Of a DNA stretch of 60,591 bases, positions 4,955-60,125 are shown in pieces; the first letter of the stretch is position 1; every line of letters starts with the position of its first letter. The position numbers and the translations under genes are program-made. Source of the stretch: a virus; IMG/VR virus record IMGVR_UViG_3300037511_000274. One strand, written 5' to 3'. The notes beneath the pieces are model-generated. The model was not told where the DNA came from and did not search any database. It saw only the letters and a list, made by a program, of their open reading frames with translations.

Positions 4955-4972
4955 TTGACACTTCACCGTCAT
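4955..4972 (+). promoter_or_regulatory. motif copy TTGACACTTCACCGTCAT without a -10 element, between two minus-strand genes
   Basis: 16 of 17 match to the promoter core but followed by CCCGGG. Overlaps the stop codon of 4969-5439. Confidence 0.45.
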
Positions 4973-5439
4973 GACCCCGGGACGTTCAACCACCGGCAGA
5001 CCCGGCGGTTGTAGCTCTGGCGAGGGTGACCGGCCCGGGTCAGCGCGGCCATGAGGCGAGCCCGAGGGAGCGGCGCGTGGTGGTTGCGCGCGCACAGCTT
5101 CAGGTAGCGCCCGTAGATGTCGTCCTCCGGATAGAAGCCAGTCACCTCGAACGAGCGGACCGTCTCGGCCACGGGGTCCACCGCGAGCGGACCGGGCGCG
5201 GCCATGGGGAGGGTCCAACCCGCCTCCTCGTGCTGATGGCCGGAGACCCGGCGCCGGATGCGGGTCTTCACGCACCCGTAGTCCCGGAGCGCCACGCCGA
5301 GCGACACCGGGTGCTCGGGCTCGCGCTCGTCGCGCGCCATGTTCTGGGCGTACTGGCGGTAGAGGGCTTTGGCCGTGTACGTGGCGCCGGGCTTCAGACC
5401 GCCCAGGAGCCGCGTCACGTCCTCAGGGTTAACAGGCAT
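4969..5439 (-). CDS. hypothetical protein, 156 aa
   Basis: High GC3, ordinary amino-acid composition, only plausible frame here. Confidence 0.75.
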   Translation of the reverse strand: MPVNPEDVTRLLGGLKPGATYTAKALYRQYAQNMARDEREPEHPVSLGVALRDYGCVKTRIRRRVSGHQHEEAGWTLPMAAPGPLAVDPVAETVRSFEVTGFYPEDDIYGRYLKLCARNHHAPLPRARLMAALTRAGHPRQSYNRRVCRWLNVPGS

Positions 5440-5486
5440 ACCTCAGCGTACCACGGACCCCTCAGCGGCCCTCACGCCCTCGGGGC

Positions 5487-5631
5487 GGGGGGACCTGGCG
5501 GGACTGGGGCTACCCTCACCCCCTCGCGCCCGCGTGCGTGCATGTGTGCGCCCGCCGCGCGCCCAGGGCAAGAGCATGTTTCTCGCGTATGTATAGGTGG
5601 TGAGGGTAGCCCCAGTTCCCCCGCTCCCCCC
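5487..5631. repeat. long inverted-repeat element, copy A
   Basis: Perfect 18-bp arms ACTGGGGCTACCCTCACC (5503-5520) and its reverse complement (5599-5616), extended imperfectly to about 33 bp. The 78-nt centre and the arm core GGCTACCCTCACC are homologous to copy B at 36257-36395. Confidence 0.85.
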
Positions 5632-5800
5632 AGGGTCGTGGCCCGCCCGGCGCGCATGCCTGGGAAGTTGGGACCGGGGGCAGAGGGGTGATCGGGGGAA
5701 CCAAGGCCAGCCCGATCAACCATGCCCCGGGGGGGTATACAACGCGAAGCGGCCCGGCCGCGCCTCGCTGGACGCCACCGGGCCGACTTCCTTCAGGGGA

Positions 5801-6115
5801 TCAGACCCCGGCGTCCAGCTCGATCACCTGGCCGTCCTCGGGCCGGTGCCCTCGGTCCGGGCAGAAGTACACCGGGCGCCGCTGCTCGTCATGCTCGTGC
5901 CCAGGGTTGTGGCACCTGGCCCGCCGGAGCCGGTCAGCGACGTAGGGGAAGTCCGCTCGCCCCGGCGTCCGGATCACGTAGAGCACCGGGTAGGGCTCCG
6001 GATACGGGATCACCTCGATCACGCGCCCGCCCGAGAGACCGGAGAACGGCCCCGAGCCCTGACCGTCCGGGTCGTGGTCGATGAACACGGCCGCGCCCAC
6101 CTCGAACTCAGGCAC
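5801..6115 (-). CDS. hypothetical protein, 104 aa
   Basis: GTG start 4 nt after AAGGAGGAG. High GC3. Confidence 0.7.
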   Translation of the reverse strand: MPEFEVGAAVFIDHDPDGQGSGPFSGLSGGRVIEVIPYPEPYPVLYVIRTPGRADFPYVADRLRRARCHNPGHEHDEQRRPVYFCPDRGHRPEDGQVIELDAGV

Positions 6116-6269
6116 TGGGCTCCTCCTTGCGCTCGGGATGTATCCGCTTGACCGGGATGCGCTCACCGGTGCCCGCCACGATCCGCACGCACCGGTGGCC
6201 CACGGCCGCTTCGCACTTAGGGCACGGCCGCCGGAGCGCCTTGTCCTCCACCGAGCCGCCCAGCCGCAT
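6108..6269 (-). CDS. small zinc-ribbon-like protein, 53 aa
   Basis: MRLGGSVEDKALRRPCPKCEAAVGHRC... with a CxxC motif. The N-terminal part of the track ORF overlaps the HNH gene and was rejected. Confidence 0.55.
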   Translation of the reverse strand: MRLGGSVEDKALRRPCPKCEAAVGHRCVRIVAGTGERIPVKRIHPERKEEPSA

Positions 6270-13118: not shown

Positions 13119-14591
13119 CTACCGCTTGACCAGCCCGAGCTTGGTCGTCGGCATGGTGCCCTGGGGAGCGGCAAAGTTCGTCGCCTGGATCCGGTCGGCC
13201 CAGAACGACATAGCCACCGCGTCGCCCCGGTCCGGCGACCGGCCGAGCTTGGCCACCACGTCCTCCTTCTTCTCCACCTGGATCTTGGGTGGCACGCCGG
13301 TGGTCACCTGCCAATGTGGCGTGGTCAGGTCGGAGGTCAGCAGGTCGTCCGGGGGGAGCATCAGCGTCGGCTCGAATGCCGGGTCCAGCAGCTCCCGGAG
13401 GTTCCAGTAGGCCGCGCTCCGGACGTTGGCGAACCCGAGCTTGCGCGAGCGCTCGCGTACCTGGGTCTTGCCCGAGCCCACGTACGCGATGGCCTTCAGG
13501 CCCACCTCGCGCGCCCGGTCGTAGACACCGGCGCCCACGCCGATCACGTCGATGATGGGCCGCTCGTCCAGGCCCTGGAGCATCGCCACCGTGTTCATGG
13601 TGTCGCGCGAGCGCCAGCCGTCCAGCCAGAGCGCCGGTCCATCCCGGTGCGCCAGGACCGACTCGTCCCCGCCCCGGCCCACGTCCACGCCCACCCAGAG
13701 TGGGCCGCCCTGGGCCGGGCGTCCCGCCCGGTCCCACTCATACCAGCGCTCGTTAGCCGCCTCCAGCCACGCCAGCGGGATCACGCTGTCCTCGTCGCTG
13801 GCGTGGAACTCGCCCAGCACGCGGTTGTGGTAGACCGCCGAGTCCCGGCCCCACTGGAGCGCCCGCTGTTCGGCCCAGGCGCGCGAGATCCGGCCGCCCG
13901 CCACGGCCTCCTCCAGCGTCACGCTCTTGGTCCACCAGTCCTCGTACCCGGGCGCCCGCCGGTGGATGTCGTAGAACCGGCCAGCCGGGGCGCCCGGCGT
14001 GCTCATGGCGAACGCGTACGCGTTGTCCGCCGTGTCGGGGCCAGCGTTGGAGAACGCGCCCTCGATCGAGTCCCACGTGGCCGGGGGCACGATCTTGGCC
14101 TCATCCAGCAGGTACAGCAGCTCCTCGGCGTGCGCGCCCTCGATCCGCTCGGGCTGGTTGCTGGCCACCGCCGTGGCCGCGCCGTAACGCAGCTTCAGCC
14201 TCAGGTCCAGCAGCTCGGTCCGCCGGTTGTACGGCGCCCTCCCCAGGCTGGTGAAGTCGATCCGGTCGGCCCACTTGTGGATCTCGGGCCAGAGGTAGAC
14301 CTCCAGGTGGCGCCACGCGCTGGCCGTGGTGATGATCTTCCAGTCCTTGCCCATCATGTCCCGGGTGGTGGCGAACCAGTTCACCAGCAGCGCGCCCGAG
14401 AACGACTTGCCCAGGCCGTGCGGCCCCTTCACGGCCACGCGCCGGTGCACGGGGAGGGCGTCCAGGATCTCGGACTGGTAGCCCGCCAGCCGGACGTTGA
14501 GCACGTCGTGAGCCCAGGCCGTGGGCGAGTCCCGCCAGCGCGCGATCCGCGTCCGCGCGAGCACCTTGCCCGCCAGGTCGATACCGGTCAC
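13119..14591 (-). CDS. terL: terminase large subunit
   Basis: Walker A VKGPHGLGKS. About 490 aa. GTG 14591 chosen because GC3 collapses upstream and a GTGA overlap links it to the 59-aa ORF. Confidence 0.85.
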   Translation of the reverse strand: MTGIDLAGKVLARTRIARWRDSPTAWAHDVLNVRLAGYQSEILDALPVHRRVAVKGPHGLGKSFSGALLVNWFATTRDMMGKDWKIITTASAWRHLEVYLWPEIHKWADRIDFTSLGRAPYNRRTELLDLRLKLRYGAATAVASNQPERIEGAHAEELLYLLDEAKIVPPATWDSIEGAFSNAGPDTADNAYAFAMSTPGAPAGRFYDIHRRAPGYEDWWTKSVTLEEAVAGGRISRAWAEQRALQWGRDSAVYHNRVLGEFHASDEDSVIPLAWLEAANERWYEWDRAGRPAQGGPLWVGVDVGRGGDESVLAHRDGPALWLDGWRSRDTMNTVAMLQGLDERPIIDVIGVGAGVYDRAREVGLKAIAYVGSGKTQVRERSRKLGFANVRSAAYWNLRELLDPAFEPTLMLPPDDLLTSDLTTPHWQVTTGVPPKIQVEKKEDVVAKLGRSPDRGDAVAMSFWADRIQATNFAAPQGTMPTTKLGLVKR

Positions 14592-14767
14592 GTCTCCCCC
14601 AGCCTCATCATCCGGCGGAACTCCGCCAGCCGTTCGTTGACCACCCGGCGCCGCTCGCGCGAATCGGCCGCCTTGGGGCTCAGGCCCGGCCGCCAGTGCT
14701 CGCACCCATCGTCCGCCGGGACCAGCTCGTCACAGGCTCCGCACGGCCGCCACGCCCGGAACATCAT
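14588..14767 (-). CDS. 59-aa zinc-ribbon-like protein, below the ORF-track cutoff
   Basis: ATGA overlap with the upstream gene and GTGA overlap with terL. Contains CGACDELVPADDGCEHW. High GC3. Confidence 0.55.
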   Translation of the reverse strand: MMFRAWRPCGACDELVPADDGCEHWRPGLSPKAADSRERRRVVNERLAEFRRMMRLGET

Positions 14768-15489
14768 GGCGAGGGGACTGCCTCGATCTGGTCCAGGTCG
14801 ATCGAGCCCAGGTGCTGGGTCAGCAGCGCCGGAACCTTCACGGCCTGCTCGGGGGAGAGGTCCAGGGCGTCCAGCAGCAGCACCACGCGCCCGGCCACCA
14901 CGTCGCCCCAGCGCTCGGCCAGCGAGGTGATCCGCTCGGAGATGCCCATGTCGTGGGCCACCTTGGCGTACTTCACCACCCGGTCGCGCTCGGCCGCCTC
15001 CAGGTTGACCAGCGCGCGGACCTCCTCGGACTGGACGTAGATCACGCCGTCCTTGCCCGCCGCGCCGTACCGGTAGCCGATCAGGCCCGAGCCGTCCGGC
15101 GACCGGCCGCCCTCCTCGATCCCCTCGGCCGTGTCGCCCTCGGTGGCCACCTGCTGGCGGAGGAGTTCGGCGTACATGCCCGCCCGGAGGTAGGTCATCT
15201 GGAGCATGGCCAGCACGGTCATCCCGGCGTCCAGCTTGGTGGGCTCACCGTGCGGGTTCCACGCCGTGATCTTGGCGATCTCCACGCGCGTCTCGCCCTG
15301 GGCGTGCGCCACGTCCCGGCGTAGGCCCGAGTGCATGTCGCATGCGTCGGTGCCGCGAATCGCGCGCTTGTGGCACGGCCCCCGGCCCTTGGTCCGGTTC
15401 TTGGTGCACTCCAGCGTGGCGTGTTCGTCGCACCACCGGGCACCACCCGGGTTGTTGTTCTTGCCCAGGGGCTCTACCGGTTTCGACAT
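14764..15489 (-). CDS. hypothetical protein with N-terminal Cys/His cluster (possible small terminase)
   Basis: 241 aa. Position upstream of terL. ATG 6 nt after TACAGT, suggesting a leaderless transcript. Confidence 0.75.
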   Translation of the reverse strand: MSKPVEPLGKNNNPGGARWCDEHATLECTKNRTKGRGPCHKRAIRGTDACDMHSGLRRDVAHAQGETRVEIAKITAWNPHGEPTKLDAGMTVLAMLQMTYLRAGMYAELLRQQVATEGDTAEGIEEGGRSPDGSGLIGYRYGAAGKDGVIYVQSEEVRALVNLEAAERDRVVKYAKVAHDMGISERITSLAERWGDVVAGRVVLLLDALDLSPEQAVKVPALLTQHLGSIDLDQIEAVPSP

Positions 15490-16995: not shown

Positions 16996-19900
16996 TCACT
17001 TCTCGTAGCACTTACTCCAGTCGGTCCCCGCCGGGCTCCGGTCGGCCAGGATCGGGACGCCCCGCCAGGGCTCACCGTGGAGGCTCAGCGCGTCCACCAC
17101 GACCCGGCTCACGTCCTCCACGAGGTCGGCCGGGATGGACAAGACGATCTCGTCGTGGACCTGGGCGCGCAGCATGGGGAGGACTTCCGCCGGGAGGTTC
17201 AGGCAACCCTCCATCATGATGTCCCGGGCCGCGCCCTGGCCGCCGAGCGCCGGACCCTGGGTGTGAGCGCGCTGGGGGTCGGGCCGCATGAGGCGACCGA
17301 ACCCGTTGTCCAGGAGCTGGCCACTGGCCGCCAGCGCCCGGATCTCGTCCTGCCACTCGACCAGCCGGGGGAAGCGCTCGCGCATCATCCGGTCGAACTG
17401 GACCACCAAGTGGGGCTCGATGTTGTTGCTCATGCTGATCCGCTTCAGGCTCTCCCCGTAGTTCCAGCCGTGGCCGATCGGCTTGGCCACCTCGCGCATC
17501 TTGGGGTCACCGAACAGCGCCAGGGCGAGGTCCGTGTGGGGGTCGTCGGTCTTCAGCATGTCGATGTACGCCTGGTCCTGGCTGAGCCCGGCGACCGCCC
17601 GCATATCGACCTGGGAGAGGTCGAACGAGACCAGGAGCTGGCCGGGGTCGGGGAGCAGGACCGCCCGCTCCACGTGCCGCCCGCCGCGCTTGCCGAACAC
17701 CGTCAGCCCCGGCTCGGTGCTCGACCACCGGCCGGTGGCCTGCTTGAAGCTGATCTTGGGGTGAACCCGGCCGTCCGGCCCCATCGCGTTCTGAGCGGTC
17801 TCATAGATCGAGCGGGCCGACACGATCCGGTAGACCGCCTTCACGATCTCCAGGACCGTCTTGTTGTGGCCGTACTCCCGGCCGTAGTGGAGCATGGCGT
17901 CCGCGCTGATCTGGAGGTCCCCGCTGTTCGGCGTGCGCCACAGCGCCTTGGGCTTGACGCCCGCCGCGAGGAGGGCCGCCTCCAGCGCCTCCTTGCCGAG
18001 CTTGCTGGCCAGCGGCGCGGCGTACTCCTTCCCCTTGGCGTCGGCCGTGGGGATGCCGTACTTGCCCGCCAGCAGCTCCATCGCCTGGGCCTTCCGGCGC
18101 TGGATCTCCTCCACCCGCTGGGCGAGGAGCGGCTGGTCCACCAGGAACCCGTTGTGGCTGATCTGAGCGGCGATGGCGGCCACCCGGTGCTCGCGCCTCA
18201 GGTAGTCCGGCATCGTGCCGCCCAGCGCCTCCAGGAGGGCCGCGTACAGCCCCCGGGAGCCGCCCACGTCGTGCTCCAGGTACTCCCGGAAGCTGGCCGC
18301 GTCAGCGGCGCGTGCCGGGTCCGGGTCGTCCAGGTCCACCGGGATTTCGCCCCAGCCGCCGTACTTCTTGGCCAGCGCCCTGGAGATGTCGGACAGCTTG
18401 CCCATCGCCCCGTACTTGACCGCCAGCGCGCCCAGGTCGTACTTGCGGGTGGCGTCCACGCCCTTGTCCCGGGCCATCGGCGGATCGACGTAGCGGGCCA
18501 TCAGCAGCGTGTCCGCGAGGTTGCCCGCCGCCGCCTGCTCGTGCACCCACGGCATGATGAACGCGCCCGCTCGGACCAGGACGGGGAGGTCAAACGCCAT
18601 GATGTTGTGCCCGGTCACCACCCGGCCGCCGATGATGGCGTGGCGCGCGTGGGCCACCGTGTCCCGCTCGGTGGTCGCCACCGGCCCGTCATCGTGCGCC
18701 CACCCGGCCAGCCGGACGTAGTCCCGGGGCTCGGCCTTGAACTGGTCCCCGATGTCGCCGGTCTCCAGGTCGATCACCGTGACCTCGGCCGTGGGCGCCA
18801 GCGCGTCGGTCTCCCCGCCGATGGTGTCCTCCGGCGCCGGTCCGCGCGCCTCGGCGTGCTCGTTCTCCGGGGCGGGCTCGGGCATCGGGATATCCACAGG
18901 CTCCTCCACAGGCTGGGGATCGGGGCTTGACGTGTGAGTGTCAGGCTCGGTCGGCGCCGGGCTGACCGGCTCGGGGTCTTCCTTCCACGGGGGGAGGTCA
19001 TCGTCGTGGAACACCTGATAGACGCTGACGTGGCCGTGGGCCGAGCCCACCCGCTGGATCCAGTACGGGCCGTAGTGCCGCCCCGAGATCCGGCTGTACG
19101 CCTCGCCCAGGCTCTTGCCGTACGTCCGTTCGGTGGGGTCGTCCAGCTTGGGCGGCGCCGAGTAGAGGTCCGTCCCGCCGGTCAGCGCCTTGGCCTTCAC
19201 GTCGGCCGTGCGGAACGTGGCCTCCCCGAACTGCTCCCGGAGCCATTCCAGGTGGTTGATCCAATACTGGGTGTCAAAGTCCGACTCCGAGCGCCAGACC
19301 TTCAGGTTGGCCAGGAATCCCTCCAGGCCCGCCACCTCCACGATGCCGCCCACCATGCGCTCCCACTGCTCGAACGAGCCGAAGGACACGCCGCGCTTGG
19401 GGGTCGGCGCCCCGGCCGCGAACCAGGCCCGGACCAGCGTCAGGATGGCCACCAGCAGGTCCCGCCGGTGCTTGCGGGTCCAGCTCCCCAGGTCCAGGCC
19501 CGAGGTGCCCGGGTGCCGGAACGAGCTGGCCGCCCGGTCCTGCGGGTTCGCGTACCGGGGCCGGAGCGCGATCCGGTAGACCCGGCGCGTGATGTCGCCC
19601 TTCACCTGGACGTTGTTGCCCAGCGAGATCCACGTGACCTTGTTCGGGAAGCTGGCCATGTTCGAGACGCCCAGGATCCGGTCCTGCCAGACCTCGGCCG
19701 TGAGGGCCTGGGCCAGCGGCGCGCCCTCCAGGGTGTGCGCCTCGTCGTAGACGAAAAACTCCTGGCCGGTGCGGAATGCCGCCGTGACCTGCTTGCGGAT
19801 CTCCTCGGGCTCGCCCACCCAGTTCATCGGAAGGGCCGCGTGGCCGGTGTAGACCGTCAGCAGGACATCGGCCAGCAGGTTCTTGCCCACGCCCATCTGA

Positions 19901-21264
19901 AGGCCGTCGATCACGGCCAGGGGAGCGCGCGGCACGTTACCCCGGATGGCCGGGGTCACCAGCAGCGCCAGCAAGTTGGCCCGGTCGGCCTCCCCGTCCA
20001 GCGGGAAGTCCCCCAGCCACTCCTCCAGCAGCAGGTCCCGGGCCGCCGCGATCTCGGCCGCGCTCGGGTCCTCGGGTACCTCGATCCCGGCGAACACCTC
20101 GTCCGTCATCAGCAGCGTGCACGTGGCCTCGTCGTAGCCGGGCTCGGTACAGATCGTCCCGTCCGGCCGGACGAACGGCGCGTGGGCGATGCGGGCCAGC
20201 GAGGCGAACTTGGCGGCCCGGCTCATCGTGGCGGACATGGTCCCGGCGTCCGGCCAGGTGTAGGAGTACGTCACGCCCTGGGCGCCGTCGTTCTCGTTGA
20301 CCGTGATGGCCGTGGCCTGGACGAGGTCGTGGAACGAGCCCCGGTCCACCGGCGCCATCGTCTCCTCGTCGCTCAGCCAGGAGATCACGCCCCCGTGGTT
20401 GAACAGGCGCCGCGCGTTCCACAGGTCCAGCAGCGCCTTGGTCAGGTCGTTGATCACCTCCAGCCGGTCCCGGTTACAGATGATCGTTGCGCGCCCGTCG
20501 GCGGCCACCGGCGCTCCGCCGGTCTTCTTCCGGGGCTTGGGCTTGGCGTCCGCTGGTTTGGCCTTGGCGCCGTCAATGACCCGCTTCAGGTAGCCCGCCC
20601 GCCGGTCCTCCGGCCGCCCGGCCAGGATGTCGTCCAGGCCGCTCTTGTCGGCTCCCCCGGGGAGGCGACCGAAAGAGACCTTGGTGGCGCCCTCGGCCGC
20701 CAGGGCCGCCGCCAGGCCCATGCCTGCCTCGTAGACCTCCGGGTTGGTGGCTGCGTCCGCGTCCAGGATCACCACCACGTTCTTGCCGTCCGCCACCGCG
20801 AGATCCGGGATCGGGCCGCCGCCGGGGGTCTGCCACATCCGGCATCCGGCGATCGAGTAGACCGAGACGCCGGGCGGCGCGTAGCTGGCGCCCGCCAGGC
20901 CCTGCTTGGTCCCCTCGATGATCACCATCAGCTCGGAGCCCTCGACCTCCCGGAGTGCCCAGAGCACGGGGGTCATGTCCTTGGCGAACACGTACTTGCG
21001 GGGCTTGCCGGTCCGCCGGTCCGCCGTCGGGTCGTCCGGCCGGACCTGATACTCCACACGGCCGTCCGGCGAGGTCCAGGGGAACACGATGGCCGGGTGG
21101 TTGCTCCAGTTCGGCCAGACGCCCTCGGTGGGGTTGTCGTCGTGGGAGAGCAGCGAGCGCACGCCCAGTCGCTCGGCCAGCTCCACGTTGACCGCGTGGG
21201 CCTCCAGGTATGCCCGGTGCTCGGCGGTCAGCGCCTGGCCGGGAGTGGTGTTACCGTCGTTCAC
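16996..21264 (-). CDS. replicase fusion: Toprim/DUF3854-like primase domain, SF3 (P4/D5-type) helicase, and family A DNA polymerase with 3'-5' exonuclease
   Basis: IIEGTKQ and ILDADAA (Toprim-like). GVGKNLL and FFVYDEA (Walker A and B). Pro-rich linker. VIDLETG, HNIMAFDL and YLEHDV (Exo I-III). FDLSQVDMR, KPIGHGWNYG and QVHDEIV (Pol A, B and C). Confidence 0.85.
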   Translation of the reverse strand: MNDGNTTPGQALTAEHRAYLEAHAVNVELAERLGVRSLLSHDDNPTEGVWPNWSNHPAIVFPWTSPDGRVEYQVRPDDPTADRRTGKPRKYVFAKDMTPVLWALREVEGSELMVIIEGTKQGLAGASYAPPGVSVYSIAGCRMWQTPGGGPIPDLAVADGKNVVVILDADAATNPEVYEAGMGLAAALAAEGATKVSFGRLPGGADKSGLDDILAGRPEDRRAGYLKRVIDGAKAKPADAKPKPRKKTGGAPVAADGRATIICNRDRLEVINDLTKALLDLWNARRLFNHGGVISWLSDEETMAPVDRGSFHDLVQATAITVNENDGAQGVTYSYTWPDAGTMSATMSRAAKFASLARIAHAPFVRPDGTICTEPGYDEATCTLLMTDEVFAGIEVPEDPSAAEIAAARDLLLEEWLGDFPLDGEADRANLLALLVTPAIRGNVPRAPLAVIDGLQMGVGKNLLADVLLTVYTGHAALPMNWVGEPEEIRKQVTAAFRTGQEFFVYDEAHTLEGAPLAQALTAEVWQDRILGVSNMASFPNKVTWISLGNNVQVKGDITRRVYRIALRPRYANPQDRAASSFRHPGTSGLDLGSWTRKHRRDLLVAILTLVRAWFAAGAPTPKRGVSFGSFEQWERMVGGIVEVAGLEGFLANLKVWRSESDFDTQYWINHLEWLREQFGEATFRTADVKAKALTGGTDLYSAPPKLDDPTERTYGKSLGEAYSRISGRHYGPYWIQRVGSAHGHVSVYQVFHDDDLPPWKEDPEPVSPAPTEPDTHTSSPDPQPVEEPVDIPMPEPAPENEHAEARGPAPEDTIGGETDALAPTAEVTVIDLETGDIGDQFKAEPRDYVRLAGWAHDDGPVATTERDTVAHARHAIIGGRVVTGHNIMAFDLPVLVRAGAFIMPWVHEQAAAGNLADTLLMARYVDPPMARDKGVDATRKYDLGALAVKYGAMGKLSDISRALAKKYGGWGEIPVDLDDPDPARAADAASFREYLEHDVGGSRGLYAALLEALGGTMPDYLRREHRVAAIAAQISHNGFLVDQPLLAQRVEEIQRRKAQAMELLAGKYGIPTADAKGKEYAAPLASKLGKEALEAALLAAGVKPKALWRTPNSGDLQISADAMLHYGREYGHNKTVLEIVKAVYRIVSARSIYETAQNAMGPDGRVHPKISFKQATGRWSSTEPGLTVFGKRGGRHVERAVLLPDPGQLLVSFDLSQVDMRAVAGLSQDQAYIDMLKTDDPHTDLALALFGDPKMREVAKPIGHGWNYGESLKRISMSNNIEPHLVVQFDRMMRERFPRLVEWQDEIRALAASGQLLDNGFGRLMRPDPQRAHTQGPALGGQGAARDIMMEGCLNLPAEVLPMLRAQVHDEIVLSIPADLVEDVSRVVVDALSLHGEPWRGVPILADRSPAGTDWSKCYEK
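18927..18944. promoter_or_regulatory. orphan dyad site TTGACGTGTGAGTGTCAG in the replicase linker
   Basis: Encodes PDTHTSS with CCT, ACT and TCA codons. Confidence 0.4.
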
Positions 21265-32648: not shown

Positions 32649-32911
32649 GGCTCAGCCCCCGCCGCGCTGGGAGAGGTAGATGGCGAGGAGGGCAACGGCT
32701 CCGGCGGCTCCGGTGGAGGCAACGAGGGTCTGGGCGCGGTACCTGGCCCGGAGAGCCAGAGCCTCAGAAAGCCCGGCCCGAGCATCGTCGCGCTGCTGAT
32801 GAGCATCAGCGGCCACGGGCCTGCCGTGTAGATGATCCATGTTCCCCAGGCGCCCCCGAGGAGCAGGAAGAATACGTCCCGCTGGAACGGTGGCAGTGCT
32901 CGGCGGCTCAC
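32645..32911 (-). CDS. membrane protein with Pro-rich tail, 88 aa
   Basis: GTGA overlaps at both ends favour this frame over 32652-32915. Confidence 0.5.
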   Translation of the reverse strand: MSRRALPPFQRDVFFLLLGGAWGTWIIYTAGPWPLMLISSATMLGPGFLRLWLSGPGTAPRPSLPPPEPPEPLPSSPSTSPSAAGAEP

Positions 32912-33663
32912 GCACGTTCCCCTACCTTCCCGGTCCGGCGGCCCGTTGACAGTGAGGTTACCTGCCGGTTTGCCGTCGGCCCCGACCTCATCCCCCGCAA
33001 CCTCACGAGGACGGGATCCCGTACGGACGGCCCGCTCCAGTCCAGCTCCAGGGCCGAGCCCACGTGGTGGCGCTCGGCGCGTCGATCCTTGGCGTGGTGC
33101 TTCGTGATTGACGGTACGGCACGGTGATCAACAAGGCAGGGCCAGGTGTACCAGACATCGGTCCTGGTTTTCTCGGCCCAGCCCGCCACCCGCATATCGT
33201 CCGTGATGCCGGTGAGCCGGTCGGCCAGCGCGATCATTTCGGAGATGCGCGCCACGGGGAGGACGATCCCGACCCCCCACATGAGTTTCGAGCTGACCAC
33301 CCACGAGGCGCCGAGCCGGTCCGCGTCGGCCGCCATCCGGCGCCAGCGATGCGGCGTGGCGCCACCCTTGCCGAGGTAGGGCGAGACCACCGCGTCCGGC
33401 GGGACGTGCTCCAGGGCGCGCTCCAGCCCGGCCAGCAGGTCGGCCGAGACCAGGGCATCGTCCTGGAGCAACAGGTGGAAGTCCGCGTCCGGGTCGTGCA
33501 TCACCCAGCCGCCGCGCGCCGTGCGCCAGCCCCGGTCCGCGTTGCCCGAGGGCGGCCCCTCGGTGTCGTAGTGCACCCGGACCGGCCGGTCCAGCGAGGC
33601 CAGCAGCTCGGCCACGTACGGCGCGCGGTCCGGGTGCGCCATGATGCTGGCGGAGAGCTTCAC
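32908..33663 (-). CDS. glycosyltransferase-like protein, 251 aa
   Basis: GTGA overlap start at 33663. LLLQDDALV (DxD-like) motif. Located in the glycosyltransferase cluster. Confidence 0.7.
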   Translation of the reverse strand: MKLSASIMAHPDRAPYVAELLASLDRPVRVHYDTEGPPSGNADRGWRTARGGWVMHDPDADFHLLLQDDALVSADLLAGLERALEHVPPDAVVSPYLGKGGATPHRWRRMAADADRLGASWVVSSKLMWGVGIVLPVARISEMIALADRLTGITDDMRVAGWAEKTRTDVWYTWPCLVDHRAVPSITKHHAKDRRAERHHVGSALELDWSGPSVRDPVLVRLRGMRSGPTANRQVTSLSTGRRTGKVGERA

Positions 33664-35540
33664 GCCCCGTCCCGGAGCGCCTGGAGCATGGCGTCCCGCT
33701 TGTCCTTGCGCACGCCCAGCCGGATCCCCCGGGCCTTGGCGAGGACGCGTAGCTGGCCGGTGTTCAGCTCCTCGATCGAGGTACCGGCGGCCACGCCACC
33801 CACCTCCCCCTCGGCCACGACCTCGCGCGCCTTCAGCTCCTCGGCGGACTTCTCCAGGGCGGCCACGCCATCGGGGTCCACCCGGCGCCACTCGTCCTCC
33901 AGAGAGTTGATTGACACTCCAGTGTCACCTCCCAGGTCCGGCCGGTCGGCGCGCTCCTCCACGATCTTCACCGGACCAATTCCCGGGATGTCCGCTTCCC
34001 TCGTCACCGGCGCCGGGTCCACGCCCTCGCCAGTGATCGCCCGAACCGGCATGTCCGAGGCGAGCCCCCGCTGGCTGTGCGTCAGCTCCCCGATCGGCTC
34101 GGCCGCGTGGCCGGTGGTCGCCCACTCCTGGCGATCGGTCAGCTTGGTCACGGCCAGCCGCTCGTGATAGATCGTCACCGGCGCCAGGACGCCCTCGGCC
34201 ACCAGCTCGTCCACGGCCTCGGCCACGCCCGGCCAGTCCGGGTGGTGGTAGTCGTCCACCGCGATGATGGCCCCAGGGGCAAGGTGCGGCGCCCACGTCT
34301 CGATGTCTAGGCGCGCCCCGTCGCGGGTGTGGTCCCCGTCCACGAACAGCAGGCCCACGGGCTTGCCGGACCAGTCCGAGCCCACCTCGAACGAGAACGC
34401 CTGGACCAGCTCGATCCGCTCGGCGTAGCCCAGCTCCCGGACCCGGTACTCCGCCCACCGCTTGGAGTCGATCTCGGTAAAGGGCGGGTCGTAGACGTTG
34501 CCCTCCAGGTCCCACGGGTCGATGGCGGTCACGTGCGCGCCGTTACCCTGCTTGGCGCCCCAGGCCATGATCAGCGCGGTCCGGGCCTGGAACACGCCCA
34601 GCTCCACGATCTCGTGGTCCGCCGGGACGCCAGCGGCGAAGTCCGCCAGCACCATGCCGATCTCGTCCGGCGTCGCTCCCCGGACCTCCTTCAGCTCCCG
34701 GGTGAACGGGTATCGGTTCATGTCGATCCTCTCCCTGGTCGGCCCGGACCTCAGCCGGGGGTCTCGCGTGGTGCGCACCACCGGCCGGACGGACGGCCGC
34801 ACAGGCCCCACCTTGAACTCCGGCGCCCCCGGCCGCAACGCGCGCACGGTGCGGATGTCCTGGAGCAGGCCCTGGCGCCTCCAGCGCTCGTAATCGCGCC
34901 GGTCGTTGCGGTACTGCTCGCGCGAGTTCACCCGCTTGTACTGGTCGTCCATCGGGGCCTTGCCGCCCGCGTACGGGTTGAAGTGCTCCACGCGCACCTC
35001 GGGGAGGTGACGCATCGCCCCGGCCCCGTTGAACAGGTCCATCATCGAATTGTCGGAGTACATGTGCTCCACCGGCGCCGGGACCATCCGGCCGAGCGCG
35101 GCCACCGCGTCGGCGGTCACGGCCCACTCGGTGGAGAGCTTGGCGCCCTGGTACCCGTCGTCCCCGTAGACCATGCCGGTGCCCATCTCGTGGAGCACGG
35201 TCAGATAGCGCTCGGCCCAGTTCATCGTCTGGGGGAGGTGATCGTCACCGGCGAACCCCAGGGCGAAGTACCGGCCCTCGGCCGCCAGCGCCGTGGCCAC
35301 CTCGTTCAGCTTGTGGACCATCGGCCGCCACTCGGGCACCTCCACGAGCCGGACCGGGAGCGCGTCCATCTGCGCGATGTCCCGGTACCCGCCGATCTCG
35401 GGGTCGTCCGCGTCGGCCACCAGCACGAGGTCCGCCACGTCCCACGCGTTGGTGAAGTCCCAGGCGCCGATCACCTTCAGGATGTTGCCGGGTCGGCCCC
35501 GGGTCGGGACGATCACGGCCAGCTCAGTCCGCTTAGGCAT
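33660..35540 (-). CDS. fusion protein: glycosyltransferase, class I SAM methyltransferase, and C-terminal Rho_N/SAP-like motif
   Basis: LAVIVPTRGRP...LVADADDPE (GT2-like). EIVELGVFQARTA...LLFVDGDHT...AVDDY (Methyltransf_24-like). LNTGQLRVLAKARGIRLG at the C-terminus. Confidence 0.8.
   Translation of the reverse strand: MPKRTELAVIVPTRGRPGNILKVIGAWDFTNAWDVADLVLVADADDPEIGGYRDIAQMDALPVRLVEVPEWRPMVHKLNEVATALAAEGRYFALGFAGDDHLPQTMNWAERYLTVLHEMGTGMVYGDDGYQGAKLSTEWAVTADAVAALGRMVPAPVEHMYSDNSMMDLFNGAGAMRHLPEVRVEHFNPYAGGKAPMDDQYKRVNSREQYRNDRRDYERWRRQGLLQDIRTVRALRPGAPEFKVGPVRPSVRPVVRTTRDPRLRSGPTRERIDMNRYPFTRELKEVRGATPDEIGMVLADFAAGVPADHEIVELGVFQARTALIMAWGAKQGNGAHVTAIDPWDLEGNVYDPPFTEIDSKRWAEYRVRELGYAERIELVQAFSFEVGSDWSGKPVGLLFVDGDHTRDGARLDIETWAPHLAPGAIIAVDDYHHPDWPGVAEAVDELVAEGVLAPVTIYHERLAVTKLTDRQEWATTGHAAEPIGELTHSQRGLASDMPVRAITGEGVDPAPVTREADIPGIGPVKIVEERADRPDLGGDTGVSINSLEDEWRRVDPDGVAALEKSAEELKAREVVAEGEVGGVAAGTSIEELNTGQLRVLAKARGIRLGVRKDKRDAMLQALRDGA
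33911..33928. promoter_or_regulatory. orphan dyad TTGACACTCCAGTGTCAC (contains the perfect palindrome TGACAC-TCCA-GTGTCA)
   Basis: Encodes GDTGVSINS with ACT, GGA, TCA and TCT codons. Confidence 0.45.
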
Positions 35541-36207
35541 CGGGGCTCCAGGTGAAATGCGGGTGCTCGATCAGCGAGCGCTCCCCAGGGTGGATCTTCC
35601 GGTCAATCTGCCAGCGCGATCCCTCGCCCGGGGTCCGGCTGGTCGAGTAGAGGTAGTGGTACATGATCCGGGGGATCACCACCTCGGAGCGCAACAGCTT
35701 GGCGCTCCTGAGCTGTTCGGCCCAGGCCCGGTCCTCGGCTGACCCGGCGCCCACGCGATCGAACCTGGCCTTGCGCGCCAGCGCGGTCCGGATGGGGTTG
35801 ATGTGCGAGATGTCCCGCTCGTACCGGCCGGGGTAGTTCTTCCAGCGCCGGTGCACGAGCGAGTGGTGGGCCACCGCCGTGGGCGCCCCGTCCGAGTAGC
35901 ACTGGACCTGAAACCCGACGTAGTCCGGCTGGGTCTCCAGGGCCGCCATCACCTCGGCCACGTAGTACGGGGCCACCAGATCATCGTCATCGACGAACGA
36001 GACGTAGTCGGTGTCCGCGCTCTGGACCATGGTCTGGCGGATCTTGGGGAGGGACGGACTGCCGTTGTTGAACCAGCCGACCACGCGCGCTCTCCCGGCG
36101 TACGGATCGAGCTGAGGCAACAGGCCCGCCATCAGCCTCTCGAACAGCGCGCGCCGCTCGCCCAGGGTGGGCACGAGGATGGTCCACGTTGGCGGCATGG
36201 CTGTCAT
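35533..36207 (-). CDS. family 2 glycosyltransferase
   Basis: ILVPTLGER...YVSFVDDDDLV pattern. 8-nt overlap with the next gene. Confidence 0.85.
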   Translation of the reverse strand: MTAMPPTWTILVPTLGERRALFERLMAGLLPQLDPYAGRARVVGWFNNGSPSLPKIRQTMVQSADTDYVSFVDDDDLVAPYYVAEVMAALETQPDYVGFQVQCYSDGAPTAVAHHSLVHRRWKNYPGRYERDISHINPIRTALARKARFDRVGAGSAEDRAWAEQLRSAKLLRSEVVIPRIMYHYLYSTSRTPGEGSRWQIDRKIHPGERSLIEHPHFTWSPDA

Positions 36208-36256
36208 GTCCTCAATCTAGCAGACCAGGGGGCGCCGGGCACAACCCCCGGCATCG

Positions 36257-36395
36257 CGGGGGACCGGGGAGACCGAGGCTACCCTCACCCCCGGTCCCTC
36301 GCGTGTTACGCGTGTGCACCCGCCCGCCGAACAACAGATCACTTTCAGCAACGTGTATAGGTGGTGAGGGTAGCCTCGGTCTCCCCGGTCCCCCG
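36257..36395. repeat. long inverted-repeat element, copy B
   Basis: Perfect 33-bp arms CGGGGGACCGGGGAGACCGAGGCTACCCTCACC (36257-36289) and its reverse complement (36363-36395) around a 73-nt centre. The right arm ends exactly at the stop codon of 36396-36677. Confidence 0.9.
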
Positions 36396-56033: not shown

Positions 56034-57746
56034 TCAGGCGTCGCGCGCCACGACGCCCAGCGGCTGAACGTCGGTGGTGTAGACCCGCGAGTCCCGGCCC
56101 ATCTTGAGGGCGGCCAGGCCGTCCTCCACGAACAGGGCCGTGAACTGGTTGTGGGTCAGCATCGCGTTGTCGTAGATGGTGTCCAGCGCGATCACGTCCT
56201 GCTCCGCCTTGACCCAGGTACCGGCCGGGTAGATCAGGAAGCTGACCGAGGTCGGGAAGGCCGTGGCCGCCGAGGAGCCGCCGAACGCCCCGCCGGTGAA
56301 CGCGTCCTGCCAGTCGTAGACGAACTGGACCGAGGCGCCCCGCATGGTGAACCAGGAGACGATCTCAGTGTCCGTCACGGCCATCTCGGACACGCCCCGG
56401 CGCCGGGCGAGGGACGCCCGGATCGGGCCGACCACCCATGCCGGGAGGACGACCTCCACGGTGGTGCCGAACGCCATACGGTGCCGGTAGCGCATGTCCC
56501 AGACGGCCAGCTCCACCGCGCTGAGCAGGTTGCTCGCCGCGTCGTCCGAGGAGGCGGGCTCGTTGATGGTGACCGGCGCGGCGGAACCGGCGACCAGGCG
56601 CGCGATCATCGACGCGTTGACCTTGTGGGCCAGGGCCGTGGTGGCCTCCTGGCTGAACTGGGTCACGGCCTCGGGGTAACCGCGCTGCTGGAGCAGGTTG
56701 CCGGTGAGGCAGAGGTAGGCCACGTCCAGGCGCACGTCCGTGAAGTCCGGGCAGGGCACCTCCACGCAAACCTTGGTGGCGCCGTTCTCCACCTCGTACT
56801 CGGTCAGGATCACGTCCCCGTCGTCACCGATCAGGTCGTAGACCACCGAGAAGTCCGGGCCGCCGTCGTCCGGGATCTGGAAACCGCCCCGGCTGGCCTG
56901 GACGGTCGGGCCGCTCCACATGCCGTCCAACGAGGACAGCGAGAACAGGTCGTAGAGGATCTCGGACGGCGCACACCAGCCCGCCGCCGCCGTGAGCGCG
57001 CGACCGGCCTGGACCCGCTGGAGCTGGGAAGCCGCGAGGGAGCCGCCGGGGAGGCGGGCCTCACTGCGCACGCGCTCCAGCATGGCGCGCACGTCGCTGG
57101 CCTCGGTCACCCGGAACTCGGCGCCGTACCGGCGCTCGATCGCCGCGATGCTGTGCCGGACGACGCTACGGCCGCTCCGCATCTGGAAGTGGTGGCCGCC
57201 CGCGATCTTCAGCGCGTCGGGGCCGCTGGCGCCCTTGGCCGCACGGCCGTAGCGACCGAACTGGGTGTCCAGCAGGCGACCGACGGCCAGCGGGCTGTCC
57301 AGCTCCCCGCGCACGCCCGGCGCGTCGGCCGACGCCACGAGGACGCCCACCGGCTCGGGCTCGGGGGCCGGGGTCGGCTCCGGCTCGGGGGCCGGGTCGA
57401 TGGTGCCGCCGGTCGGGGCGGGCGCCGGGGCCGGGGTCGGCTCGGGGGCCGGGGTCGGCTCGGGCTCGGGGGCCGGGGTCGGCTCCGGGGTCGGCGCCGG
57501 GTCCAGCAGGCCACCGGCGAGCGCCTGGCGGGCCGCGTCGGCCTCGGCGGCCAGCTCGGTCCGGCGGGTCTCCTCGCCCTGGACGTTGGTCAGCAGGTCC
57601 CGGTAGGCCACCAGGCCCTCGGCCGGGGTCGCGTTGTCCGCGAGCGCGGAGCGAGCGGCGGCCCGAGCCTGGGCGGCGAATGCCGCGAACTCCTCGGCGC
57701 TGAGCGCGCCGAGATCGGCCGGGACCTCGAACGGAAGGGTGAACAT
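56034..57746 (-). CDS. major capsid protein with N-terminal scaffold-like coiled coil and Pro/Glu/Thr linker, 570 aa
   Basis: Start trimmed to ATG 57746 after GGGGAG. AAGWCAPSEILYDL and other HK97-lineage capsid patterns. Confidence 0.75.
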   Translation of the reverse strand: MFTLPFEVPADLGALSAEEFAAFAAQARAAARSALADNATPAEGLVAYRDLLTNVQGEETRRTELAAEADAARQALAGGLLDPAPTPEPTPAPEPEPTPAPEPTPAPAPAPTGGTIDPAPEPEPTPAPEPEPVGVLVASADAPGVRGELDSPLAVGRLLDTQFGRYGRAAKGASGPDALKIAGGHHFQMRSGRSVVRHSIAAIERRYGAEFRVTEASDVRAMLERVRSEARLPGGSLAASQLQRVQAGRALTAAAGWCAPSEILYDLFSLSSLDGMWSGPTVQASRGGFQIPDDGGPDFSVVYDLIGDDGDVILTEYEVENGATKVCVEVPCPDFTDVRLDVAYLCLTGNLLQQRGYPEAVTQFSQEATTALAHKVNASMIARLVAGSAAPVTINEPASSDDAASNLLSAVELAVWDMRYRHRMAFGTTVEVVLPAWVVGPIRASLARRRGVSEMAVTDTEIVSWFTMRGASVQFVYDWQDAFTGGAFGGSSAATAFPTSVSFLIYPAGTWVKAEQDVIALDTIYDNAMLTHNQFTALFVEDGLAALKMGRDSRVYTTDVQPLGVVARDA

Positions 57747-57998: not shown

Positions 57999-58709
57999 AT
58001 GAGCACTCAGGAGCGCAACTACCGCAAGAACCCCCACACCGCGCGTTGGCTGATGGCCTTCCACGCGGCGGCTGCTGGCCTCCCGGCCGACCTGGACGGG
58101 GAGAACGATTACATGACCCCCGCCGAGCGTGGCCTGGCCGAGGAGATCGACCTCCTGAACGAGATCCCGGTGGACGCCAACCTGGACCGGCGCTCGCCCC
58201 GTCAGGCCGAGCTGATGACCAGCCTGGTCGCCCAGATCACCGAGCTGGACGCCGAGCTGGGCGCCCGCACCGGCGAGTGGATCGCCAAGGCCACCGCCGC
58301 CGGTCACTGGACCCCCGGCCGCGAGGGCAACGCCAGCGCCTGGATCACCAAGATGATCGACAAGGTCCGGGAGCTGAAGGCCGCCGCCAAGGCCACCCCG
58401 AGCACCCCGGCCGCCGAGGTGGCGAACGGCCGCTACGCGGTCGAGGAGGACGGGGTCCTGAAGTTCTTCAAGGTCACCAACGGCAAGCGCGCCGGGTTCG
58501 TCTTCCTGGACGTTCAGGCGAGCGACGAGTGGCACGCCATCCGCAACGTGGCCCGCATCCGCAAGATCGTGGCCCTGATCGCCGAGGACGCCCACGCGGC
58601 CATGATCCGCTACGGCCACGAGCTGGGCGAGTGCGGCCGGTGCGGCCGGACCCTGACGGACGAGGCCAGCCGGGCGGCCGGGATCGGCCCGATCTGCGCG
58701 AGCAAGTAG
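57999..58709 (+). CDS. hypothetical protein with C-terminal DUF6011-like zinc ribbon, 236 aa
   Basis: CGRCGRTLTDEASRAAGIGPIC at the C-terminus. RBS AGGGA. Confidence 0.8.
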   Translation: MSTQERNYRKNPHTARWLMAFHAAAAGLPADLDGENDYMTPAERGLAEEIDLLNEIPVDANLDRRSPRQAELMTSLVAQITELDAELGARTGEWIAKATAAGHWTPGREGNASAWITKMIDKVRELKAAAKATPSTPAAEVANGRYAVEEDGVLKFFKVTNGKRAGFVFLDVQASDEWHAIRNVARIRKIVALIAEDAHAAMIRYGHELGECGRCGRTLTDEASRAAGIGPICASK

Positions 58710-58716
58710 CCGGACC

Positions 58717-58742
58717 GGGAGGGGGCTTGCGAGCCCCCTCCC
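58717..58742 (+). terminator. hairpin GGGAGGGGGC-TTGCGA-GCCCCCTCCC
   Basis: 10-bp stem 8 nt after the stop codon. Confidence 0.6.
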
Positions 58743-58791
58743 CCTCGGCGTAACGTCACAGTCATAGCGGCTAGGTAAGGAGTGATCGGCA

Positions 58792-59226
58792 ATGGTCAAC
58801 GTTCCGTTCGGGATCGGGGAGTACATCACCAACGGCTCCAGCGCCGGGCGCGTGATCGAGATCGTGGAGAAAGACGCACGGTGGCACTGTCCGGCCCTGA
58901 AGCTGAGCAACGTCGGCCTGGAGGCGTTCGGCGGCAACATCGGGATGGCCAGCTCGGTGCCGGACTACCTGCTCACCGGCTGGCGCCGGATCCCGTTCGA
59001 GTGGACGCCCAACCCCGGCGGCCAGACCGAGGAGCGGTACGTGTGGCGGGACAACTGGCGGCGCCTGGAGCGCGAGGTCCGCTCGCGCGTCCCGTCGCGC
59101 GTCCAGGCCCGGGATGAGCCGTGCGCCAGCCCGGCCACGTGCGACGTGCACGGGGAGGGTCTTGCGATCACGGCGGAACGTGAGCAAGGCTCGGAAGTTC
59201 CCGCACCCGTGGAGGCAGAGCGATGA
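58792..59226 (+). CDS. hypothetical protein, 144 aa
   Basis: RBS AAGGAG. Preceded by a degenerate motif copy, GTAACGTCACAGTCATAGCGGCTAGGT. Confidence 0.8.
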   Translation: MVNVPFGIGEYITNGSSAGRVIEIVEKDARWHCPALKLSNVGLEAFGGNIGMASSVPDYLLTGWRRIPFEWTPNPGGQTEERYVWRDNWRRLEREVRSRVPSRVQARDEPCASPATCDVHGEGLAITAEREQGSEVPAPVEAER

Positions 59227-59453
59227 ACGGCCTGGACCCGCTGACAATCGTGATGGTGTGCCTACTGGCCGTGGTGGCCGCTGGTGTCCTGGGGGCCTTC
59301 CTGGGCGCCGTGCTCTGGGCCATGTTCGGGGACCTCGTGCTGGCCGTGTGGTGCCCGGTGCGCGCCTTCCTGGGCCGGGCCTTCCGCGACATCGTGGAGG
59401 GGTTCAAGAGCGCCGTGGAGTGGGCGGTCTACGGCACGGTGTACGGGTCGTGA
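59223..59453 (+). CDS. membrane protein, 76 aa
   Basis: ATGA overlap. Two hydrophobic helices. Confidence 0.75.
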   Translation: MNGLDPLTIVMVCLLAVVAAGVLGAFLGAVLWAMFGDLVLAVWCPVRAFLGRAFRDIVEGFKSAVEWAVYGTVYGS

Positions 59454-59686
59454 TCTGCCCGCCGTGCACCGAAGCGATGGGCCGGTGGCTGGACGCCCGG
59501 CCGCCCGCCGTGGGCGGGTTCTCGTTCGGCTCGGGCGCGGCGTACGACATCTCCCCGGCCGGGGTCACCGAGCGGCGCCGGGCGCGCGGCCGGTGGTGGG
59601 CCGGGATCGTGCGCGCCCAGCGCCAGACCCTGGCCGAGGCGTGCCGAGCTGGCCGCCACGTAGGGGTTGACACCTCACAGTCATGA
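59450..59686 (+). CDS. hypothetical protein, 78 aa
   Basis: GTGA overlap start. High GC3. Its 3' end reads through the next promoter motif. Confidence 0.6.
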   Translation: MICPPCTEAMGRWLDARPPAVGGFSFGSGAAYDISPAGVTERRRARGRWWAGIVRAQRQTLAEACRAGRHVGVDTSQS

Positions 59687-59695
59687 CGGTAAGGT
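59667..59695 (+). promoter_or_regulatory. promoter module TTGACA-N17-TAAGGT
   Basis: TTGACACCTCACAGTCATGACGGTAAGGT. Confidence 0.7.
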
Positions 59696-59744
59696 CTTCC
59701 TTGTACGGCGCACCGGGCGCCGGGACCGGGAAGGACCACCAGCC

Positions 59745-60086: not shown

Positions 60087-60099
60087 GGCCCCCAGAGAC

Positions 60100-60125
60100 T
60101 GGCCCCCGGTCAATTGGCCGGGGGC
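60100..60125 (+). terminator. hairpin GGCCCCCGG-N8-CCGGGGGCC followed by TTCCCTT
   Basis: 9-bp stem 14 nt after the stop codon. Confidence 0.6.

Follow-up and report, generated by a model that had tools for sequence, protein, structure and literature searches.

Paired mirrored repeat arrays in a phiAsp2-like phage genome as candidate replication sites

To our knowledge, the replication origins of actinobacteriophages are essentially unmapped. The lambda origin consists of four 18-19-bp dyad iterons and an A/T-rich region. For satellite phage P4, the GenBank record places crr, the cis-required replication region, immediately 3' of the alpha primase-helicase gene; its type-1 iterons have a 9-bp period, GGTGAACAGTGTGAACA, and face inverted TGTTCACC-type copies over about 40 nt, and a second iteron locus, ori, lies 4.5 kb from crr. 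In SaPI origins, sets of iterons follow the rep helicase gene directly and are apparently bound by Rep as two hexamers (PMC7581432).

We describe two related elements, A and B, in IMGVR_UViG_3300037511_000274, a 70% GC phage genome whose only close cultured relative is Actinoplanes phage phiAsp2. On the evidence below, they are probably iteron arrays read by the phage's primase-helicase-PolA protein, and would serve as an origin or as crr-type cis replication sites. The window, meaning the whole stretch of 60,591 nucleotides analysed, is a circular assembly in which bases 1-127 recur at 60465-60591, and the genome is thus a 60,464-bp circle. Its genes are nearly all on the minus strand, and those that frame the elements are these:

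21264-16996, minus strand: primase-helicase-PolA fusion, 1422 aa, within the early/replication genes (PHROG and Pfam matches)
14705-13119, minus strand: terminase (terminase genes span 13119-15489)
between the terminase and the HNH endonuclease in transcription order, minus strand: endolysin
6655-6296, minus strand: HNH endonuclease
5801-6166, minus strand: 121-aa ORF, upstream of element A in transcription
4969-5439, minus strand: 156-aa ORF, putative DNA-binding protein, directly after element A
57884 to about 36397, minus strand: major capsid protein through tail genes

Downstream of the 156-aa ORF in transcription are genes for a DUF1360 protein, portal and MuF, and a short opposite-strand cassette sits between MuF and the major capsid protein. 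A glycosyltransferase/methyltransferase block follows element B in transcription order. Both copies thus stand on operon or module boundaries, A between the HNH endonuclease/121-aa ORF and the 156-aa ORF-portal block, and B between the tail genes and the glycosyltransferase block. They are 30.8 kb apart on the 60.46-kb circle.

Element A (5487-5631) has the anatomy that an earlier note on this DNA ascribed to it. An 18-bp perfect arm core, ACTGGGGCTACCCTCACC at 5503-5520 with its complement at 5599-5616, encloses a 78-nt centre, and the arms extend imperfectly so that 5488-5524 pairs with 5595-5631 (37 nt, 81% complementarity). The homologous copy that the note had reported is present as element B (36258-36394), in which 36257-36292 pairs with 36360-36395 (36 nt, 97% complementarity, 67 nt between). 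The two share an arm core, GGCTACCCTCACC, found exactly four times in the window, once per arm, and also GTATAGGTGGTGAGGGTAGCC, which bears out the sharing of a junction. The setting described in the note holds as well: A lies in a non-coding gap (5440-5800) flanked by the 121-aa and 156-aa minus-strand ORFs, and the distance of about 48 nt to the next start codon, given for both copies, measures 49-50 nt. Among the short-range inverted repeats of the window, A and B rank as the two longest; they are its only two long ones of this type and also its only arrays.

The arms themselves are repetitive, each comprising about three tandem G-rich units of about 9 bp (GGGGGACCN-like) that are inverted beyond a 67-78-nt spacer. 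Among 30 related elements, 9 nt is the commonest spacing of the G-runs. B has three unlike units, each of them with a near-perfect mirror copy (97%). The spacers are mostly GC-rich with a short A-rich patch (GAGAAAC, GCTGAAAG) and carry alternating purine-pyrimidine tracts; three of the 11 such tracts of at least 12 nt in the window fall inside the roughly 280 nt that A and B occupy. The parts of the two elements and their surroundings are as follows:

5445..5450, minus strand: TACGCT, a -10-type hexamer 5 nt ahead of the 156-aa ORF ATG (5439-5437), a leaderless-type start
5487..5520, read on the plus strand: A left iteron array, GGGGGGACCT / GGCGGGACT / GGGGCTACC, then CTCACC (from sequence and inverted repeat)
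5521..5598: A spacer, 78 nt, with purine-pyrimidine tracts at 5531-5551 (21 nt) and 5584-5595
within 5521..5598, minus strand: motif CCTATACATACGCGAGAAAC in the A spacer
5599..5631: A right (inverted) array, GGTGAG / GGTAGCCCC / AGTTCCCCC / GCTCCCCCC
5670..5702: putative A side cluster, 38 nt past the right array, with G-type units GGGACC, GGGGGCA, GGGGTGAT and GGGGGAACC
5750..5785, minus strand: small GC-rich terminator-like hairpin just 3' of the 121-aa ORF stop, kept in the closest relative, L032
36214..36219, minus strand: TAGATT, a -10-type hexamer 6 nt ahead of the glycosyltransferase ATG (36207-36205)
36258..36289: B left iteron array, GGGGGACCG / GGGAGACCG / AGGCTACCC, then TCACC
36290..36362: B spacer, 73 nt, with a purine-pyrimidine tract at 36307-36319
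within 36290..36362, minus strand: motif CCTATACACGTTGCTGAAAG in the B spacer
36363..36394: B right (inverted) array, GGTGA / GGGTAGCCT / CGGTCTCCC / CGGTCCCCC

Elements of the same build occupy both syntenic positions in most phiAsp2-like relatives, which places A and B far beyond chance. Loci of relatives were drawn from IMG/VR, 37 around portal homologues and 27 around glycosyltransferase homologues, and by our count about 24 of the 25 loci with usable sequence upstream at the B position carry the element in some form. The 3' arm lies 46-52 nt from the start codon at B and about 37-56 nt at A (by eye). Arm sequences vary widely between phages; G-runs that end in AC always make up the sense-strand arm, and the other arm carries the complement. 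One relative's arm reads GGGGGGACT GGGGGGAGC GGGGGGAC. Inner arm parts are conserved and outer ends variable. The loop is similarly ordered, with the motif CCCTAYRCACGTYGRGAAAAA always adjoining the 5' arm and, near-universally, an alternating purine-pyrimidine tract of 12-41 nt and then a G-run adjoining the 3' arm.

Beyond the arm, a TANNNT box stands 5-8 nt ahead of the ATG in all 23 homologous sites compared (A and B together), a leaderless-type promoter layout, and at B the interval from arm to -10 box contains a conserved GAGATGCCCC box. One relative, L088, has no B, and its whole intergenic region including the promoter region is also absent. At B, the arms of the phiAsp2 subclade have decayed to 8-9 bp while the loop core is retained. 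Additionally, A and B of one genome have private sequence in common, GGCTACCCTCACCACCTATACA in the window and ACTGAATGGGACC in IMGVR_UViG_3300020147_000010, which indicates occasional gene conversion between the copies.

This pattern of conservation bears on the idea, raised in the earlier note, of a MITE-like mobile insertion with terminal inverted repeats. The size of the elements (about 140 bp), their long inverted repeats and the two similar copies in one genome would suit such an insertion. However, there are only two copies, their positions are conserved in most relatives (syntenic across at least 25), the conserved inner arms and variable outer ends are the opposite of transposon termini, and no target-site duplication is evident. 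MITE-like multiplicity is equally absent: an exact-motif scan of IMG/VR, 2.9 million viral contigs, gave 0 matches to the hairpin core as an inverted pair, and a 16-mer scan of IMG/VR gave 31 single matches, all due to chance and none with a partner arm. A blastn search of the A gap against cultured phages returned nothing relevant. We thus reject a mobile insertion, to which we give next to no likelihood.

Arrays of similar design occur with primase-helicase genes in other viruses. An unbiased search of 2.9 million viral contigs, in which a pair of G-type units had to face an inverted pair over a gap (GGGGGACNNGGGG-N60-90-CCCCNNGTCCCCC), gave 14 viral loci unrelated to phiAsp2, with GC contents of 45-72%. 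The arms at these loci are exact tandem 9-mers, GGGGGACNN, in which NN is constant within each phage, and most loci have additional repeat copies in both orientations 40-80 nt away. The putative side cluster of A resembles the flanking iteron clusters of canonical arrays (L110-L112), and its units resemble those of L197 and L198. At least nine of the 14 loci lie inside or just 3' of a primase-helicase gene; some of these helicases are homologous to aa 273-787 of the window protein and others are of the D5_N/DUF5906/Pox_D5 kind, with primase domains of the Prim-Pol, Toprim_3 or AEP type.

A systematic test compared 80 viral loci whose genes include a homologue of the window helicase domain (aligned helicase regions) with 31 control loci, an array being scored by script as tandem 8-10-bp repeats mirrored within 150 nt. 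Mirrored arrays were present at 51 of the 80 loci and at none of the 31 controls, invariably 200-300 nt beyond the point where the helicase match ends, at the gene's 3' terminus or just past it. Their layout is uniform, with three 9-bp units, a 56-64-nt spacer and three inverted units, and the spacer reads TTTTCCACCCTTAC, an alternating purine-pyrimidine tract of 19-32 nt (mostly 28-30) and GAAGGA..GCCGGAAAA. The repeat unit is clade-specific (TGTGAACCT, GGGGGACCT, GGGGAATGT, GTGAGCCTC, GGGGAACCT, GGTGAACGT and others). As a sequence pattern, clade-specific repeats that adjoin a self-loading helicase gene are the hallmark of an initiator-iteron pair. In several clades the ORF runs through the arrays and stops just past them, the 9-bp period corresponding to three codons; the arrays of L110, L127, L143, L195, L197, L198 and L122 lie within coding sequence.

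The helicase has more than 250 homologues. The closer ones (44-57% identity), primase-helicases of 800-900 aa encoded by Micromonospora, Streptomyces and Plantactinospora elements and by phage contigs, connect these arrays to A and B. All three that we inspected have G-rich arrays in the last part of the helicase gene: TGGGGGCGA three times in Micromonospora sp. L5; GGGGGTGAT three times, an 86-nt spacer and ATCACCCCC three times inverted in Streptomyces cyaneochromogenes; and GGGGGGAAC twice, a 101-nt spacer and GTTCCCCCC twice inverted at the end of the helicase gene in phage contig L198. A separate PolA gene directly follows the L198 array, and within 18 kb of that contig the unit occurs in the array only. 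When aligned, the L198 spacer (CCCTACGCAGGTGCGGAAAAAAGT...) runs colinearly with the loops of A and B and with those of related elements, and the alignment takes in both the CCCTACGCA..GGAAAAA motif and the purine-pyrimidine tract. By this evidence the L198 array is a homologue of A and B.

The position directly downstream of the helicase gene, occupied at 51 of the 80 homologous viral loci as well as in L195, L197 and L198, is vacant in the window: no array lies at or after 16996-21264. Helicase and PolA form a fusion in phiAsp2-like phages, and its junction has no array in the window or in the others. The helicase-PolA fusion of the relative L122 (50% identity), an ORF of 1516 aa, has the array in its linker. 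The simplest history consistent with these arrangements would be that the helicase gene originally had the array at its 3' end and that the phiAsp2-like clade now has two copies elsewhere.

From the anatomy of A and B, their conservation and their homology to arrays at helicase 3' ends, we infer protein binding, melting and origin activity. A and B would be two copies of a cis replication element in which about three tandem repeats of about 9 bp (consensus GGGGGACNN) face an inverted set. The helicase part of the protein encoded at 16996-21264 may bind these repeats through a C-terminal DNA-binding region, two opposed helicase rings may form on the mirrored arrays and separate the strands of the spacer, and the primase and polymerase domains of the same fusion protein could then begin synthesis. 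The two copies might be two origins, or an origin and a helper site comparable to P4 ori and crr.

The 1422-aa protein comprises a primase-like N-terminus, a P-loop helicase region (the helicase part being aa 273-787) and PolA. Its putative DNA-binding region, aa 620-790, is modelled by AlphaFold as a helix-helix-beta-hairpin (pLDDT 81). A fold search with this model gave no significant PDB match, and the 171-aa C-terminal fragment had a single protein as its only match in a homologue search.

The earlier note had also offered an origin-type cruciform. The origin part of that option is the one that we favour, on a different basis, namely mirrored iterons of about 9 bp homologous to arrays at helicase 3' ends; the hairpin look of A and B is largely a by-product of the mirrored arrays. 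The additional complementarity of the arms suggests that unwound strands or a transcript can also fold back. Likewise, the near-perfect mirroring of B's non-identical units suggests fold-back of unwound DNA or RNA, or conversion within the element.

Several observations count against an origin. The weak comparison of the helicase family with P4 alpha and the missing PDB match for the modelled region weigh on this side. The helicase gene is 11 kb away from A and 15 kb away from B, protein binding alone needs no 97% mirroring of B's unlike units, B is missing from L088 and its arms are degenerate in the phiAsp2 subclade, and a boundary position about 48 nt upstream of conserved -10 boxes also fits a transcriptional role. 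GC skew, from the whole sequence and from 4-fold sites, switches sign at B; this switch is confounded because it coincides with the boundary between early and structural genes and with the codon bias of the structural genes.

The folding check that the note had proposed found either strand stable (z -5.5 to -10.9 against dinucleotide shuffles), with a predicted fold of about -100 kcal/mol for A and B. This stability (z -6 to -10) agrees with a role for a 33-37-bp stem in minus-strand transcripts, ahead of the promoter of the following operon, where it would terminate or insulate the upstream operon or be a site of RNase III processing or of stabilisation. On the transcribed strand the two copies fall between genes at module boundaries, their arm variants are mirror-matched (97% in B), each is followed by a conserved -10 box, and actinophage phiC31 reportedly has hairpin terminators without U-tails, in work attributed to Ingham et al. 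1995. However, no T-run follows A or B and neither qualifies as an intrinsic terminator (loop 67-78 nt), loops of 67-120 nt being atypical of terminators. Rfam 15 gave 0 matches at the gathering score over the whole window, and a consensus terminator/promoter scan gave nothing above chance and no match at A. G:U-type pairs are equal on the two strands (62 versus 64), a symmetry that is uninformative for the choice of an RNA strand. With this, no Rfam match and no U-tract, there is no sign that one RNA strand has been selected.

The arms also retain a specific repeated GGGGGAC rather than pairing alone, and in the phiAsp2 subclade the loop core is kept while the stem is down to 8-9 bp. Homologous arrays lie inside ORFs (helicase 3' ends, the L122 linker), where a terminator would be harmful, and the gene upstream of A already has its own small terminator-like hairpin (5750-5785). 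For these reasons we regard a terminator, processing hairpin or structured RNA, all named in the earlier note, as unlikely to be the primary role, and such an RNA hairpin could be a secondary effect of the arrays.

The sequence between the arms and the start codons raises a further alternative, in which the arrays bind a phage protein, either the initiator or some other factor, that switches on or off the two promoters about 48 nt downstream and have no origin activity here. The fairly constant distance from arm to start (46-52 nt at B, about 37-56 nt at A), the -10 box conserved at 23 of 23 sites, the conserved GAGATGCCCC between arm and -10 box at B and the joint loss of B and the promoter region in L088 all agree with such a switch. 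Yet the arrays of other lineages lie at or inside helicase genes and lack such a promoter context, no candidate regulator co-varies with the arrays, and the features of the spacer (purine-pyrimidine tract, A-rich patch) are those of helicase-linked arrays. We thus consider transcriptional control alone distinctly improbable. A promoter inside the loop was also considered, with -35/-10 pairs sought by eye on both strands, and was discarded for inconsistent spacing and a TANNNT that is not conserved.

A packaging role has been weighed for element A in particular, the terminase recognising repeat clusters and cutting in or near the element as at a pac or cos site, comparable to the pac repeat clusters of P1. 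In the GenBank record of phiAsp2, the numbering starts (coordinate 1) within the 3' arm of that phage's element A, and the phiAsp2 terminase carries a P1 Pac-like annotation. A lies between the HNH endonuclease gene and the block of the small DNA-binding protein and portal, and the metagenomic contigs L050 and L052 end in or near the 3' arm of A. However, the ends of L050 and L052 are 31 nt apart and most full-length contigs end elsewhere; breaks in assembly or sequencing at a GC-rich inverted repeat account better for these two ends. An equally good copy, B, stands mid-genome, the terminase genes are 8-10 kb away, and the association with helicase genes in other lineages would be unexpected of a packaging site, which makes this reading very improbable. 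Contig ends were separately examined as evidence of a cos site and set aside, as contigs starting about 1 kb upstream of the portal gene share no common end.

Returning to the replication sites that we favour, a tentative and unlikely extension would have A and B form a split origin and helper pair and, in addition, gate late gene expression, the purine-pyrimidine tract being a GC-rich stand-in for an A/T-rich unwinding element. Once the initiator had loaded, the dyad of 33-37 bp with its purine-pyrimidine tract would unwind or fold back and thereby activate the leaderless-type promoters about 48 nt downstream, and replication would be tied to transcription of the portal/head and virion-glycosylation blocks. 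A GC-rich unwinding element of this kind might extend across a large undescribed class of helicase-linked origins. Ideas of a G-quadruplex, Z-DNA or a gyrase site for the G-runs and the purine-pyrimidine tract are speculation.

The elements provide a concrete, testable candidate origin for the phiAsp2-like group of poorly studied soil actinophages. They also point to a recurrent origin-type design, associated with one primase-helicase family, at 51 of 80 viral loci and in integrated Micromonospora and Streptomyces elements. If confirmed, the clade-variable unit would be a natural system for studying initiator-origin specificity, and the GC-rich unwinding element may be useful for plasmid and vector design in high-GC Actinobacteria. 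Additionally, an element that seems to have moved and doubled after the fusion of helicase and PolA would be a case of origin mobility.

The U-tail-less terminators of phiC31 and the RNase III sites of T7 are, like A and B, GC-rich intercistronic stem-loops with paralogues within a genome; unlike A and B, they are short-looped, without stems of tandem repeats or a link to a helicase gene. Repeats inside the coding sequence of the initiator, as in L110, L127, L143, L195, L197, L198 and L122, recall the lambda origin, whereas the O protein is unrelated and the arrays of the window are intergenic. The SaPI/PICI origins resemble the wider family in that short repeat sets flank the region that would be melted directly after the gene of a self-loading helicase. 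They differ in host phylum and helicase family, and the arrays of the window occur twice and not beside the gene. Among all these arrays, the experimental link to replication belongs to those of P4 and the SaPIs.

Unlike P4, the window has a G-rich unit (GGGGGACCN), a longer, GC-rich spacer with a purine-pyrimidine tract in place of an A/T-rich stretch, arms that reach 33-37 bp of near-perfect dyad symmetry, a proposed initiator fused to a family-A DNA polymerase, and two loci that are both distant from the initiator gene and abut promoters. A comparison of the helicase family with P4 alpha by hhalign was weak (probability 10%, P-loop region only), and some array-linked proteins do have the P4 alpha domains D5_N/DUF5906/Pox_D5 or Toprim_3. 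The window unit GGGGGACC matches P4 GGTGAACA at five of eight positions, and the units of related clades form a graded series, GGTGAACGT, GGGGAACGT, GGGGAACCT and GGGGGACCT. The P4 type-1 iteron (GGTGAACA/TGTGAACA) and the unit of one helicase-linked clade, TGTGAACCT, have TGTGAAC in common. In the wider helicase family, as at crr, the array stands immediately 3' of the primase-helicase gene. Finally, A and B share with crr tandem iterons of 8-9 bp that face inverted partners over a spacer, and the window, like P4, has two separate cis loci with the same iterons in one genome.

The unusually long 360-nt gap around element A (5487-5631), one of two mirrored arrays of ~9-bp G-rich repeats around a spacer that we propose as iteron-type replication sites, is in large part made up of two further features:

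5670-5702: putative side cluster of G-type units (GGGACC, GGGGGCA, GGGGTGAT, GGGGGAACC), adjoining element A
5750-5785: small terminator-like hairpin directly after the 121-aa ORF

The gene next after each element carries a TANNNT box 5-8 nt ahead of its ATG, an arrangement kept in 23 of 23 homologous sites. At the position of element B (36258-36394), a conserved GAGATGCCCC box additionally lies upstream of TANNNT. Both genes are likely to be expressed as leaderless transcripts.

5445-5450, minus strand: TANNNT box after element A
36214-36219, minus strand: TANNNT box after element B

Directly after the tail genes lie three glycosyl- or methyl-transferase genes, which may serve in virion or DNA modification.

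33660-36207 and 32908-33891: genes for a 224-aa glycosyltransferase (GT), a 626-aa GT plus methyltransferase and a 327-aa glucosyltransferase

Elsewhere in the window, a conserved box of ~33-57 nt, GGTTGACACTTCACAGTCATGCCTGTAATGT, with TTGACA, 18 nt and TAATGT, occurs in 13 copies; it probably acts as the principal phage promoter and has an operator built into it. Divergent pairs of this box are also present in relatives and in the Actinoplanes phage phiAsp2 (33741-33846).

9482, 30388, 31340, 31684, 57929, 59665, 60130, + strand: GGTTGACACTTCACAGTCATGCCTGTAATGT copies
11705, 12974, 25464, 28096, 28835, 29824, - strand: GGTTGACACTTCACAGTCATGCCTGTAATGT copies

An opposite-strand gene cassette (57999-60434, + strand), which has its own copies of GGTTGACACTTCACAGTCATGCCTGTAATGT, lies between the portal/MuF block and the capsid-tail block, and phiAsp2 is arranged likewise, with its opposite-strand cassette pas8-pas13. 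Gly/Pro-rich tandem DNA repeats (GGCTCGGGGGCCGGGGTC units, 57317-57517) occur where the major capsid protein gene encodes the N-terminal part of its product.

The first 127 nt of the window exactly repeat its last (1-127 = 60465-60591), and thus the contig is a circular assembly with a true genome length of 60,464 bp. In the phiAsp2 GenBank record, coordinate 1 falls inside the 3' arm of that phage's element A (the record ends being L096 1-20 and L097 3000-3139), and could be either a genuine terminus or a sequencing artefact caused by a GC-rich dyad.

At 4-fold degenerate sites of the coding strand, GC skew is +0.059 across 5800-36200 versus -0.033 across 36400-57900 (z about 4), with the sign change located at element B. 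A replication switch point would fit this change, and biased codon usage in strongly expressed structural genes would fit it just as well.

In many primase-helicase genes (loci L110, L127, L143, L195, L197 and L198), the iteron arrays fall within the final ~100 codons of the reading frame, where the 9-bp period corresponds to three codons; in L122 (4460-4800), arrays occupy the linker of an ORF that fuses helicase to PolA. Arrays inside primase-helicase ORFs would thus place a putative origin within the initiator gene itself, much as lambda carries its ori within gene O.
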